Positions 6,524 through 20,504 of a DNA stretch of 64,000 nucleotides are shown one piece after another. How positions within the stretch are numbered: position 1 is the first letter of the stretch; every line of letters starts with the position of its first letter. The notes below the pieces were generated by a model. That model saw only the letters and a list, made by a program, of their open reading frames with translations. It was not told where the DNA came from and did no database searches. The position numbers were made by a program, and so were the translations under genes. The stretch is from Promethearchaeota archaeon Loki_b31 (lineage in GTDB: Archaea; Asgardarchaeota; Lokiarchaeia; Sigyniarchaeales; SOKP01). The DNA is taken from positions 1-64,000 of the forward strand of contig NJBI01000010.1 of assembly GCA_005222975.1 (NCBI GenBank), read 5' to 3'.

Positions 6524-7762
6524 TTATATTAGACTTTTAACTATTGTTTTGATTTTTTTTTTCGATTCTGAATTTTTTAATTGATCCAAAAACAATCTTA
6601 TAAAATTATCTGGAGATTCTTCTTTAAGCGTATATAATTTTCTTAATAAAGCAATATGTTGATAAAGATTATGAAAGAAAACCCTGATTCTCATTTCTCT
6701 AAAATCTGTGCCATGTTGATTTTGGTTAGTTAATTTCTTATCTGCTTCCATACATCTACTTCTTACTTCTGCTATTGAAATATCGTTACAAAAAGGACAA
6801 TTACAAGTAAAATCTTTAAATCTGTCATTATATAATCCTTCATATTTGAACGGATCAGAATAATTGGTAATATTAAGTTCATTATCAAGTAGAGGTATGT
6901 AAACTTGAGATATCCTATCCGTACAAGCTCTTCTCCACGGGGTTGCGACATCACAACTTTCAATTCCATAAAACACCAAGAAGAAAATTTTTTTCCACCC
7001 TCCCAATCCTAAACCGTGACCACGGACTTCCCAATTATGTTTTTCTTTGAAATTAGAAAAAAGTCTTAATATTTCTTTTAATTTTAATACTCCTTGATTA
7101 GCAATACCGGCTATTCCTATATAATCTATTTTATTCGAGTGATTATTATATAATTCTTGTAATTTGGATTTGAAATCGGCAGGATTAATAGCATTTATAG
7201 GAACCATTAATTCGCAATTTTCATGTTTATTTTGAATTGAAATGTCTAATAATTCATTATTCAAATTTTCTTTTGTTTCTAATGATAACTTATTCCACTC
7301 TTCCCTTCCTTTAATCGAAATTTCGTTTCTAGATGAATAACTTGGACCAATATCAAAATTAACATAAATATCTGGTCTCCCATTTTTTATAAATTCAAAA
7401 TATGCTTCAAAATAACATCTATAACTGTTAATCTCATTTACAGGAAGATTATCATTTATAATTTTATTAAAGATTCGATTACCGCCAACATCTAATAGAA
7501 TTTTTAAATTTTGAGCTAGTTTTATGTCAACTGGCGTATATTCGGCAAGGATATCTCTAAGATTTTTTCCTTTATATTTTATTTTATAATTATTAAAGTA
7601 GGGTTTGCTTTTTGGTATAGTAAAACCGAATATAAATGAAGAGAAATTAAATAAAAAGGTATAATGATTTATTTTATTACAAAAATATGATAAATTATTA
7701 AATAGATTGTCATATTCTCCACGACCTGCTGGCCAACCAATTATTGGATAAAAATTAGTCAT
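6524..7762 (-). CDS. TGT/DpdA-like guanine transglycosylase, paralog A
   Basis: TGT-barrel motifs in order: LLDVGG, NFD, GIAG, HGLGLG, ESCDVATPWRRA, Zn site CNCPFC...FFHN. Confidence 0.8.
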   Translation of the reverse strand: MTNFYPIIGWPAGRGEYDNLFNNLSYFCNKINHYTFLFNFSSFIFGFTIPKSKPYFNNYKIKYKGKNLRDILAEYTPVDIKLAQNLKILLDVGGNRIFNKIINDNLPVNEINSYRCYFEAYFEFIKNGRPDIYVNFDIGPSYSSRNEISIKGREEWNKLSLETKENLNNELLDISIQNKHENCELMVPINAINPADFKSKLQELYNNHSNKIDYIGIAGIANQGVLKLKEILRLFSNFKEKHNWEVRGHGLGLGGWKKIFFLVFYGIESCDVATPWRRACTDRISQVYIPLLDNELNITNYSDPFKYEGLYNDRFKDFTCNCPFCNDISIAEVRSRCMEADKKLTNQNQHGTDFREMRIRVFFHNLYQHIALLRKLYTLKEESPDNFIRLFLDQLKNSESKKKIKTIVKSLI

Positions 7763-17198: not shown

Positions 17199-18845
17199 AT
17201 GAATAATTTAGATAATGACAAAAAAAAAGTGGAACAACTCACAAAAATTAGACACGCATATACAAACCTTGTAGATTATTTAAAAGAACTTTTATTTAAA
17301 GAACGCATCCTAGATTCTCCCTCGTACGCAGAACTCTCAAGAAAACTTGGTTTTAAATACAATTGGATCAAGGAAAAAAAGTATTCAATGAATCAAGGAC
17401 ATTTCCCTAAAAAAGAAACTTTTGACGATCTCTATAACCGACTAGCAAACAAGTATATGAGTAAACTTAGTAAATCCTACGAAGCGATCCAGAATAAATT
17501 TAACACTCTCTATACTTTTAGCTTCTCTACGGATAAACAATCGCTTTCAATTTCATCTTCTCAACAAAAGTCTATCAAAAGGGGATTCTTTAATAACATA
17601 AAAGGAATTATAAAGAACCATTTTCCTAACGCTAGAGTTTTTGACACAGACATTTCAAGACTATTCTTTGAGAGAGCAAGAGCATTGAAGGATTCTCATC
17701 TTAAGGGTAATTATAAATATAGAAAACTTGAATTATCAACTCTCTTTAATTTCATATACAAAATAAGAACTGTAACTACTGAAGAATTTGCTAATTTTTT
17801 TACAGATATAATTACTGTAGATGTGGATAATTTACAGATAATTAGATTTGAGGTAGAAAATTTCATTGAAGAATTCATTTTTGCAAATCCGTTTGATGTT
17901 AAATATATTGGCGATTCACATAACAAAGGAACAAGATATTTTAAACCCGAATATGAATTAACATTATCTATTTGGTTTGAAATGTCTAAAGCAAAGAAAA
18001 AGCCAATTCTCCTAAAGAATGCACGAAAACTATTGAAATATCAGACTTTTGGAAGGATTAATAGATTTGGACAACCTGATAGAGGTAAAGTCTATTCTTG
18101 GATAGGTCTTATGAACATGCTTAAAGAATTAGTTAAATTAGTACCTTACAGCTCATATTCTAAAATTTTCAAAGAAGTTTGGGACTATATAAATATACGA
18201 AATCTGTATCTTATTCTACCTAGAGTTTATCATCCAAGTTGGTACACCATCAGCACTATAAAATTTCATATAATTACACTAATAATTCGGGATCTTGGTC
18301 TTGATATTTTAACCTTAGAACCGATCAAATCTGAATCTTTTAAAAAAACTCATAGAATGGATTCATTTACTTACGAAAGACATCATATATTTGTAAACGA
18401 TAAGATGTCCATCGATGTCAACAGATTAGCTCTTGTTATGCATACGAATCATTATAATCTTGAAGGAAAATCAAACTTAGTTCTTGATTTAATTCGAAGA
18501 AGAATCAACTTAACTTTTGATTGCCCTCAATATTACAAGAAAAACATTATTGACTGGAGAGATAAATGGCAACATTATCTACAGAGACGAACTTTCTTAA
18601 TTCAGAATGGAATCGTGAACTTTATCAACGAATATTTCACTGACGATAACGGAAATAACTATATCTTTGAAAAGTTCTTCAGTAACATTCCCAAAGACAA
18701 CATTGAACAAGATATCAAAAATCTCATGCTCGAATGGATCAACAAACACCGACCAGCACCCATCCTAAACTCTCACATCATAACAAAACTCTTCTGCGGT
18801 ACTCCAAATTTAGTTACATCTGGATTTATTCAATATAAATCCTAA
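17199..18845 (+). CDS. Hypothetical protein with N-terminal HTH-like segment and possible HNH-like motif
   Basis: 548-aa ORF; SYAELSRKLG; YERHHI-x8-VNRLALV-x4-H. Confidence 0.5.
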   Translation: MNNLDNDKKKVEQLTKIRHAYTNLVDYLKELLFKERILDSPSYAELSRKLGFKYNWIKEKKYSMNQGHFPKKETFDDLYNRLANKYMSKLSKSYEAIQNKFNTLYTFSFSTDKQSLSISSSQQKSIKRGFFNNIKGIIKNHFPNARVFDTDISRLFFERARALKDSHLKGNYKYRKLELSTLFNFIYKIRTVTTEEFANFFTDIITVDVDNLQIIRFEVENFIEEFIFANPFDVKYIGDSHNKGTRYFKPEYELTLSIWFEMSKAKKKPILLKNARKLLKYQTFGRINRFGQPDRGKVYSWIGLMNMLKELVKLVPYSSYSKIFKEVWDYINIRNLYLILPRVYHPSWYTISTIKFHIITLIIRDLGLDILTLEPIKSESFKKTHRMDSFTYERHHIFVNDKMSIDVNRLALVMHTNHYNLEGKSNLVLDLIRRRINLTFDCPQYYKKNIIDWRDKWQHYLQRRTFLIQNGIVNFINEYFTDDNGNNYIFEKFFSNIPKDNIEQDIKNLMLEWINKHRPAPILNSHIITKLFCGTPNLVTSGFIQYKS

Positions 18846-18900: not shown

Positions 18901-19350
18901 ATGAAAGACGAACGAAAAATCGTCATCCGAAATGAACGGCTCCGAAAAATTAGAAACAACTTAAGACAAATCTTAATTCGAGCTGTATGGGATGAATTCT
19001 GGATTTTAGGGCACTATGCTAGTTTATATCCGCCACCCCTTGACCTCCCACCCGAAGAACTAGCAGAATTATACTACTTAGAAGGAACGAGACATAAACT
19101 CTCTAGTCTGAAAAGAAGATCTTTTTGTGAGTGTGCTAGATGCTCTAGCCAAGATAAAGATATGATATATATTGGATTTCACGACGAATGGTATTGTGTT
19201 GAATGTCATGATAACGATCTTATCTGGTATCCCTCACATGGTAGTGCTGAAAGTAGATGGCAAAACGATTACATCAATATGTACTATGAAATGAAAGAAA
19301 AATTTGAAAAGAAATATCTAAGCAGAAAGAAAGGGATTTTCGATAAATAG
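18901..19350 (+). CDS. Zinc-finger hypothetical protein
   Basis: CECARC...WYCVEC. Confidence 0.65.
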   Translation: MKDERKIVIRNERLRKIRNNLRQILIRAVWDEFWILGHYASLYPPPLDLPPEELAELYYLEGTRHKLSSLKRRSFCECARCSSQDKDMIYIGFHDEWYCVECHDNDLIWYPSHGSAESRWQNDYINMYYEMKEKFEKKYLSRKKGIFDK

Positions 19351-19381: not shown

Positions 19382-19811
19382 TCAGACTCTGCGCCCCCTG
19401 TGACCGCCTGAGCCGTTTTTAGAGGGAAATCTCTAAAAATTTACGACGGCAGTGATCATGAGACTTTGGGGTGACTTCTTCAATCCTTCCAACTCTTAAT
19501 CCGGAACGTGCCAGTGCACGGATACACGCTTGGGCACCAGGTCCGGGAGTTTGGCTTTTGTTCCCGCCGGGCGCTCTTACTTTGATGTGAACGCCCAAAA
19601 CGCCTTTATCTCTAAGATCGTTAGCCACACGGAAGCCGCACTGCATGGCCGCGTATGGATTCGATTCGTCTCGGTCGGCTTTAACCACCATACCGCCGCT
19701 ACATTTTGCGAACGTTTCACCGCCGCTAAGGTCGGTAGCTGTTACTATCGTGTTGTTATAGCTACTAAAGATGTGAACAATTGCCCACTTAACTTCTTCG
19801 CGTTTACTAAT
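19382..19811 (-). CDS. rps11: 30S ribosomal protein uS11, interrupted by a 31-nt insertion; join(19441..19811,19382..19409)
   Basis: [56 protein letters not shown]|GGHRGRRV*; probable ATT start after GGTGG. Confidence 0.95.
19410..19440 (-). other. Putative BHB-type mRNA intron in rps11
   Basis: Removing 31 nt restores the conserved C-terminus; folds into exon-exon helix, two 3-nt bulges, exon-intron helix and internal hairpin. Confidence 0.65.
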
Positions 19812-20000: not shown

Positions 20001-20504
20001 CTAACTCTTTTCTTTAACTGTTGTTAGAGGGCTACTGGGAGCGTACCCAATGAAATCTTCTTCTTCTCTTTTTACTATGTAAGAAGGGGCGTCAATTTTC
20101 TTGCCTAGTACTTGAATGTGGCCGTGAACAATAAATTGTCTCGCTTGATAGATAGTTTTCGCGAACCCTTTCTCAAAGACCATAGTTTGTAGTCGTCTTT
20201 TTAATAAGGCCTCTACAGTAAGCGATAACACATCTTCGAATCTTGCTTCTGGACCTACTACGCCGAGCCTGATTAACTTCTTACTTAGCGTATCTTGAAC
20301 CTCTGCTGCTCTTTCTTTTGATAATGTTCTAGATTGTCGTGCTATACTTCTCCAATTACCCAGCATGGTACGCATTTTCCAGAACTCTCGTTTATTTCTA
20401 AGGCCGTATTTTCCTAGAAATTCAAGTTCTTCAGCCAACCTTTCTTTTTGAAAGGGATGTTTTGGTTTTTTAAATTTTTTCTTTAAACGTCGTGGATCTC
20501 CGAT
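20001..20504 (-). CDS. rps4: 30S ribosomal protein uS4
   Basis: (ATC)[40 protein letters not shown]; extends 5' of ORF-track start. Confidence 0.95.

Follow-up and report, generated by a model that had tools for sequence, protein, structure and literature searches.

The gene for ribosomal protein uS11 (rps11) of Promethearchaeota archaeon Loki_b31 contains, nine codons ahead of its end, a 31-nt insert (19440..19410, minus strand) that is very probably a tRNA-type bulge-helix-bulge (BHB) mini-intron of the uS11 pre-mRNA, removed by the splicing endonuclease EndA and the ligase RtcB. Excision of this insert is supported by same-site inserts of two lengths in related organisms, by selection on the mini-exon that follows it, by covariation, by the presence of a single uS11 copy, and by genes for EndA and RtcB in the same genome. 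An endonuclease-spliced mRNA intron in an essential gene had been proposed in the initial annotation of this DNA, and the same-site alleles, selection, covariation, and the EndA and RtcB genes all argue for it. Read at the level of sequence, the comparative evidence appears unusually clean: two structural types at one site, exon–intron covariation, and a strictly selected 27-nt mini-exon.

The uS11 Gene and Its Insert

The window, by which we mean the whole stretch of 64,000 nt that was analyzed, covers positions 1–64,000 of the forward strand of contig NJBI01000010.1 (assembly GCA_005222975.1). The genome with the Loki_b31 allele, named G000 hereafter, is a metagenome-assembled draft of 3.5 Mb in 99 contigs, 92% complete and with 6% contamination. 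The window carries a minus-strand row of genes identified by Pfam as uS13-uS4-uS11. The unspliced uS11 ORF matches Pfam Ribosomal_S11 (E = 9.6e-38) over profile positions 2–106 of 110. Read straight through, it ends in RRKFLEISL*, and GGHRGRRV* is found in another frame, nine codons' worth of sequence past this end. Cutting out the 31 nt from 19440 to 19410 fuses AA and A into a Lys codon, and uS11 then ends in GGHRGRRV*, the same C-terminus as in every same-genus relative examined. The predicted exon junction after splicing joins exon 1 (...CGUCGUAAA) to exon 2 (GGCGGUCAC...). The coordinates of the insert, 19410–19440, had been given in the initial annotation and are exact apart from a 1-nt ambiguity due to a repeated A. 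Both ends that it had ascribed to uS11, RRKFLEISL* without splicing and the conserved C-terminus upon removal, are confirmed by translation and by the intronless relatives. An intact second rps11 copy would have indicated an integration scar; within the bounds that metagenome-assembled genome (MAG) completeness sets on copy counts and on statements of absence, we found a single Ribosomal_S11 match in G000 (92% complete) and a single one in G152 (100% complete), the genome of a second species of the same genus. The features of the gene and of the predicted intron are collected in table 1.

Table 1. Features of the Loki_b31 uS11 gene and of its predicted mini-intron, in window coordinates
Feature	Position	Strand	Remarks
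uS11 gene	19811..19382	minus	Pfam Ribosomal_S11
uS11 exon 1	19441..19811	minus	123 codons + first 2 nt of Lys codon
uS11 exon 2	19382..19409	minus	last nt of Lys codon + GGHRGRRV + stop TGA (19384-19382)
Predicted type A mini-intron, 31 nt	19410..19440	minus	missing in 28 relatives; excision restores conserved C-terminus
Outer helix, 5' strand ACUGCC	19448..19453	minus	exon 1; pairs with 19408-19403 in the minimum free energy fold
Outer helix, 3' strand GGCGGU	19403..19408	minus	exon 2, codons Gly-Gly
Central helix, 5' strand GUCGU	19443..19447	minus	exon 1, codons Arg-Arg; pairs with intron ACGGC
Central helix, 3' strand ACGGC	19412..19416	minus	intron
5' bulge AAA	19440..19442	minus	predicted cut between 19441 and 19440; AAA invariant in 10/10 alleles
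3' bulge UCA	19409..19411	minus	predicted cut between 19410 and 19409; AGA in type B
Inner hairpin (h')	19417..19438	minus	8-bp stem UUUUAGAG/CUCUAAAA, 6-nt loop AUUUCC (19430-19425)

The uS11 gene probably starts at an ATT codon (19811–19809), located 7 nt after a GGTGG sequence (19823–19819). There is no in-frame ATG, GTG, or TTG upstream. This ATT aligns with the Met of relatives (MSK...) and is also found in G152 and in L042, L022, and L023 (L numbers designate sequences of relatives, L041–L048 being metagenome contigs). Three other relatives harbor a Leu codon (LSK) at the same position, possibly a TTG start, and an out-of-frame ATG near the uS11 start (19825) is not conserved. The uS4 gene starts at 20502–20504 (minus strand) with ATC-GGA-GAT (I-GDPRR), 6–7 nt after AAGGTGA; its start codon is ATC in 10, ATA in three, and ATG in three of 16 genus relatives. 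As its ORF looked short, a hidden N-terminal intron was considered for uS4 and rejected in favor of this non-AUG start. Non-AUG (AUH) starts seem common on the ribosomal-protein genes of this genus.

On the plus strand and convergent with uS11, two ORFs of 548 aa (17199–18845) and 149 aa (18901–19350) are conserved neighbors across the genus. Neither of them has a match in Pfam. Several Cys pairs occur in the 149-aa protein, and three distant paralogues of it are encoded elsewhere in G000, on contigs C87, C42, and C63. Both ORFs are equally conserved beside intronless and intron-bearing uS11 genes, and we rejected them as an associated nuclease or homing gene. The insert was likewise rejected as a terminator for the convergent gene, the hairpins of the second structural type described below having no T-run.

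Geometry of the Predicted Motif

We call the 31-nt insert of Loki_b31 type A, as distinct from a 29-nt type B found in relatives. It runs from the third nucleotide of the 5' bulge through the inner hairpin and the 3' strand of the central helix to the second nucleotide of the 3' bulge. The minimum free energy (MFE) fold of 19382–19470 has an energy of −26.6 kcal/mol (z = −2.0) and 5 of 200 shuffled sequences fold as well, so that the predicted energy is modest as evidence against chance. The initial annotation had claimed the helices ACUGCC/GGCGGU and GUCGU/ACGGC, the bulges AAA and UCA, and an inner hairpin; these are the same as in the MFE fold, where U19439, next to the 5' bulge, is also unpaired. 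It had moreover cautioned that the central helix has 5 rather than 4 bp, which holds. A spacing of 4 bp is the classical ruler of the splicing endonuclease, and type A departs from the canonical BHB by one base, whether described as a 5-bp central helix or as 4 bp with a 4-nt 5' bulge (UAAA). Cleavage of this plus-one geometry by the endonuclease is assumed here. We rejected the canonical 4-bp register for type A, as every alternative register leads to an out-of-frame or nonconserved product. The outer helix of 6 bp and the inner hairpin of 8 bp compare with the minimum of 2 bp set for at least one flanking helix of a BHB. On either strand of the central helix, the bulge follows on the 3' side, which is the canonical polarity under the motif definition used for this comparison (bioRxiv 10.64898/2026.10.13.758758).

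The cut after the second nucleotide of each bulge, proposed at the outset for type A (AA↓A and UC↓A, the arrow marking the cut), is predicted from the sequence to yield the in-frame conserved C-terminus, and the same rule holds for type B (AA↓A and AG↓A). The exon strands of the motif are made of codons. In the nearest intronless relatives, these codons read CGG CGC ... GGG GGC and are unable to pair, whereas the synonymous codons of G000, CGU CGU ... GGC GGU, pair. The exon strands of the predicted motif would satisfy both the protein and the fold through synonymous codon choices.

Same-Site Inserts of Two Structural Types

The 161 genomes of the class and metagenome contigs were searched with a degenerate pattern of the flanking codons allowing a gap of 15–45 nt. 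The matches, which give a lower bound on the distribution of the insert as the pattern needed exact flanking codons, are G152, among the 161 class genomes, and eight metagenome contigs. Counting G000, inserts at this exact site are present in ten contigs; all of them fall between Lys and GGH and interrupt the same phosphodiester bonds relative to the codons. They come from independent assemblies of several projects (JGI, NCBI WGS, and TPA MAG). An alignment of rps11 for same-site inserts with covarying stems had been suggested as a check, and it reveals them in these ten alleles, in two structural types.

Type A is present in G000, G152, L041, L042, L043, and L045, with zero to three differences among them; the alleles of L043 and L045 are near-identical to that of G000. 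Type B is present in L044, L046, L047, and L048, and its hairpin sequence is unrelated to that of type A. Its geometry is canonical, with a 4-bp central helix (CCGG/CCGG or CCGU/ACGG) and the bulges AAA and AGA. Type B has an inner hairpin of 9 bp and an irregular outer region. The insert is missing in 28 relatives from the genus and order, whose C-terminus is identical to the spliced prediction. The lengths of 29 and 31 nt shift the frame differently, and exact removal restores GGHRGRRV* in all ten alleles. Type A includes an in-frame stop; type B has none, and read-through would produce a long out-of-frame tail.

Additional inserts were observed at other positions of uS11. L044 and L048 have a further 30-nt mini-intron after V-H-I, with a canonical GUAC/GUAC helix. 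The four type B contigs share a further 29- to 30-nt intron inside the Met codon of PYAA-M-QCGF. Among these contigs, a single 132-codon uS11 gene harbors up to three mini-introns. According to our reading of the sequences, the second uS11 intron of L046–L048 would have the same plus-one geometry as type A, the L044 counterpart being canonical. From this recurrence, we infer that these organisms seem to tolerate the extra base. In P0028, a Logan assembly, the uS11 product follows the family sequence as far as EVTPK and is then read in a shifted frame, a pattern suggestive of an insert at a further position of this allele.

Selection on the Mini-Exon and Covariation of the Helices

The 27-nt mini-exon downstream of the insert differs among eight distinct intron-bearing alleles by at least 22 minimal nucleotide changes, every one of them synonymous, with no displacement of the stop. 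Under neutrality, the expectation for such a pattern is roughly 1e-12. The pattern also holds within the pairs L046/L047 and L038/L042, which share the intron by descent. This indicates that a sequence translated only after exact excision stayed under purifying selection. Where a lineage acquired the intron by lateral transfer, some of the synonymous differences in its mini-exon may be older than this acquisition.

Among the type B alleles, pairing is seen in 98% of cells, and both sides have changed in 7 of 13 pairs. The covariation score is 0.83, versus 0.40 for shuffles (0 of 500 reach 0.83) and at most 0.28 for slid partners. Changes on both sides affect six of the nine pairs of the inner stems, which are unrelated to type A. 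The innermost pair of the central helix associates the third base of an exon 1 codon (CGU or CGG) with an intron base that is A or C, except in one allele that has G; this exon–intron pair reads U-A, G-C, or U-G across alleles. The three type A substitutions in paired positions, one from U-G to C-G and two from G-C to G-U, all keep the pairing. In G152-type alleles, C19412 is replaced by U (G-C to G-U) and an exon U by C (U-G to C-G), and five of the six pairs of the outer helix are kept, via G-C to G-U changes. Hairpin loops are freely variable across alleles. The strong evidence comes not from the fold energy but from the comparison of alleles, with ten same-site inserts and 28 relatives that have none.

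Predicted Splicing Machinery and Other Inserts in the Genome

Two tRNA_int_endo proteins of roughly 200 aa each are encoded in G000. The alpha protein (200 aa, on contig C13) keeps the catalytic His and has as its best PDB match the catalytic subunit of A. pernix (3p1z_B); the beta protein (201 aa, on C79) has a Ser in place of the His. An RtcB ligase was also identified on C84 (562 bits). In Asgard archaea, (alpha-beta)2 EndA with an L1 loop linked to the cleavage of relaxed motifs has been reported (PMC5829648). Judging from its sequence, the EndA pair of G000 fits this broad-specificity type. ARAGORN detected only 14 tRNA genes in G000, six of them with called introns. This fits the observation that Asgard tRNA genes are heavily interrupted by introns (PMC11291895; bioRxiv 10.64898/2026.10.13.758758), and most tRNA genes of G000 are probably too interrupted for recognition.

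Inserts of similar size were found in other G000 genes, where they interrupt conserved motifs. The aIF2-gamma gene has a 29-nt split between GHVDHG and KT (C32, about 7216–7260, minus strand), and two histone-fold genes contain 30-nt stop-containing inserts (C83, about 34330, and C25, about 1660, both on the minus strand). For at least one of these two histone inserts, that on C25, the helix has the canonical 4 bp and the bulges are AA↓N and AU↓A. A generic BHB scan of G000 (5+4+5 bp, G-U allowed) gave 794 canonical and 807 mirror-polarity matches; it was too permissive and uninformative. Its ORF-restoration filter needs 40 codons on each side and is blind to the uS11 intron. At the uS11 locus, Rfam gave no significant match; a sub-threshold C/D-box past the stop scored 20 bits, compared with a gathering score of 75.

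A protein identical to the spliced product of the Loki_b31 allele was not found in the protein database. The closest proteins there are S11 of intronless relatives (92–94% identity), together with one unspliced read-through product ending in FLEISF. The nearest entries are named as S11 of Promethearchaeota or Lokiarchaeota, in confirmation of the Asgard affiliation.

Taken together, these data lead us to infer removal of the insert at the RNA level, EndA and RtcB as the agents, and the exact cut sites. According to this model, folding of the transcript would pair the final codons of exon 1 with the opening codons of exon 2 in the outer helix. The last exon 1 codons would also pair with the 3' part of the intron in the central helix, the remaining intron forming a hairpin. 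The (alpha-beta)2 endonuclease would then cut after the second nucleotide of each bulge, and RtcB would ligate the exons and probably circularize the intron. Translation of the spliced mRNA would give a full-length uS11 with the conserved basic tail GGHRGRRV. The intron is located close to the 3' end of the coding region, and translation could compete with the folding of the motif.

Alternative Explanations

The insert could be removed from the RNA by an activity other than EndA and RtcB, either a different nuclease–ligase pair or an event directed by a guide RNA. That type A is one base off the 4-bp ruler and that the outer helix of type B is irregular speak for such an activity. We know of no alternative pathway that precisely excises roughly 30-nt inserts in archaea. 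Type B moreover is canonical in its 4-bp helix, its 3-nt bulges, and its predicted cut positions, the locus has no significant Rfam match, and G000 possesses the broad-specificity type of EndA (PMC5829648). We consider another activity improbable.

It is very unlikely that the insert is tolerated and never removed. The last eight residues of uS11 would then be replaced by FLEISL and the GGHRGRRV codons would be an untranslated relic. The ORF is indeed intact up to the insert, and this part covers Pfam positions 2–106 of 110. However, such a relic would have had to remain coding in eight distinct alleles and retain its stop while accumulating at least 22 changes, none of them nonsynonymous, and type B, which has no in-frame stop, would impose a long out-of-frame extension on the protein. 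The helices of the insert also covary, which a passive insert does not account for. The C-terminal extension of the eukaryotic uS11 orthologue, yeast Rps14, is needed for 40S maturation, and this need counts further against an unremoved insert.

Less likely still is that the ribosome skips the insert while the RNA stays uncut, through programmed frameshifting or through the kind of bypassing known from phage T4 gene 60. As in gene 60, a stable hairpin follows right after the last exon 1 codon, and a short hairpin-bearing noncoding gap interrupts an ORF, where exact omission of the gap would give the functional protein. Unlike gene 60, uS11 has no matched take-off and landing pair, the Lys AAA at take-off facing UCA or AGA before GGC, and no stop directly after the take-off codon, the next codon being UUU. 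The inserts of 29 and 31 nt would also need different shifts. The covarying exon–intron central helix has no role in bypassing; with its two 3-nt bulges, it suits an endonuclease and not a hopping ribosome.

It is scarcely credible that the insert arose from faulty assembly or binning, or that it is a defective variant rare in the population: G000 is a metagenome-assembled draft in 99 contigs with 6% contamination, but the same insert is found in the genome of a second species and in eight contigs from several independent projects, and two of these, L043 and L045, are near-identical to the G000 allele. A group I or group II self-splicing intron was rejected, the insert having 31 nt versus the hundreds of nucleotides of a ribozyme core and no significant Rfam match.

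Probable Origin and Spread of the Mini-Introns

A tree of uS11 nucleotides 1–280 places the alleles with the intron in four distinct clades, interspersed with intronless alleles. Type B introns and the genes that host them have diverged at similar rates, in agreement with vertical inheritance. A different picture emerges for type A. G000 and G152 share 79% identity over nucleotides 1–280 versus 96% (67/70) in the 70 nt upstream of the intron, and their introns are identical at 29 of 31 positions. In the same 70-nt tract, each of the two shares 73–79% identity with its nearest intronless kin. Between the mini-exons of G000 and G152, identity is as low as 64% (Fisher p = 6e-4). That two diverged gene backbones share type A together with 70 nt of near-identical upstream exon points to lateral spread, and type A was probably moved between species by recombination, as a block made of the intron and the upstream exon.

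We rejected a MITE-like repeat, no other copy of the hairpin being present in G000 within five mismatches. Among representative genomes of about 185,000 species, the hairpin was found only in G152 and as one chance match in a cyanobacterium.

More tentatively, this Asgard genus may host a population of mobile mini-introns that invade essential mRNAs, spread as an intron with its upstream exon, and are tolerated owing to a relaxed endonuclease ruler that accepts 5-bp central helices. We regard this scenario as quite possible rather than probable.

Relation to Known Introns and Significance

The closest parallel is the cbf5 pre-mRNA intron of Desulfurococcales and Sulfolobales, which is 16–44 bp long and has a history of gain and loss (Yokobori 2009, PMC2738675). 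The uS11 insert similarly is very short, lies within an archaeal housekeeping coding sequence, has no ORF of its own, adopts a BHB-like fold, and is patchily present among relatives; both are attributed to a hetero-tetrameric splicing endonuclease. It differs from the cbf5 intron by its host, a ribosomal protein gene of the Asgard (Promethearchaeota) phylum, by the two structural types at one site, and by the presence of up to three introns per gene in relatives. The type A motif is also one base longer and shows signs of transfer with a 70-nt exon tract. Splicing of cbf5 was shown experimentally, whereas that of uS11 is deduced from sequence. Work on the cbf5 intron is reportedly also due to Watanabe in 2002 and Yoshinari in 2006.

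Archaeal tRNA introns at noncanonical positions with relaxed BHB motifs are said to have been described by Marck and Grosjean in 2003. The uS11 insert resembles archaeal tRNA introns in size, motif polarity, bulge size, cut position, and predicted enzymes. Unlike them, it resides in an mRNA and its exon strands are codons, and splicing must be reconciled with translation. In the searchable literature, cbf5 of Crenarchaeota is essentially the one gene for which the tRNA endonuclease is documented to splice an archaeal mRNA. Only tRNA introns are described there for Asgard archaea, and we found no paper on such introns in Asgard protein-coding genes.

A Loki-type Asgard archaeon appears to need splicing for the conserved C-terminus of uS11, a ribosomal protein that is essential and encoded by a single-copy gene. 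Gene callers truncate or mis-annotate such genes, as illustrated by the database entry ending in FLEISF. Types A and B constitute a natural pair of substrates, with a 5-bp and a canonical 4-bp central helix, for studying the endonuclease ruler, and the mosaic alleles illustrate the movement of a very small intron that has no homing enzyme. These introns raise the question of how an mRNA is spliced in time in an archaeon with coupled transcription and translation, which bears on the origin of eukaryotic gene expression. If mini-introns are indeed mobile in this genus, the cell would have to splice many mRNAs before translation, and the separation of mRNA maturation from translation would then have a precedent among prokaryotes, in the closest relatives of eukaryotes.
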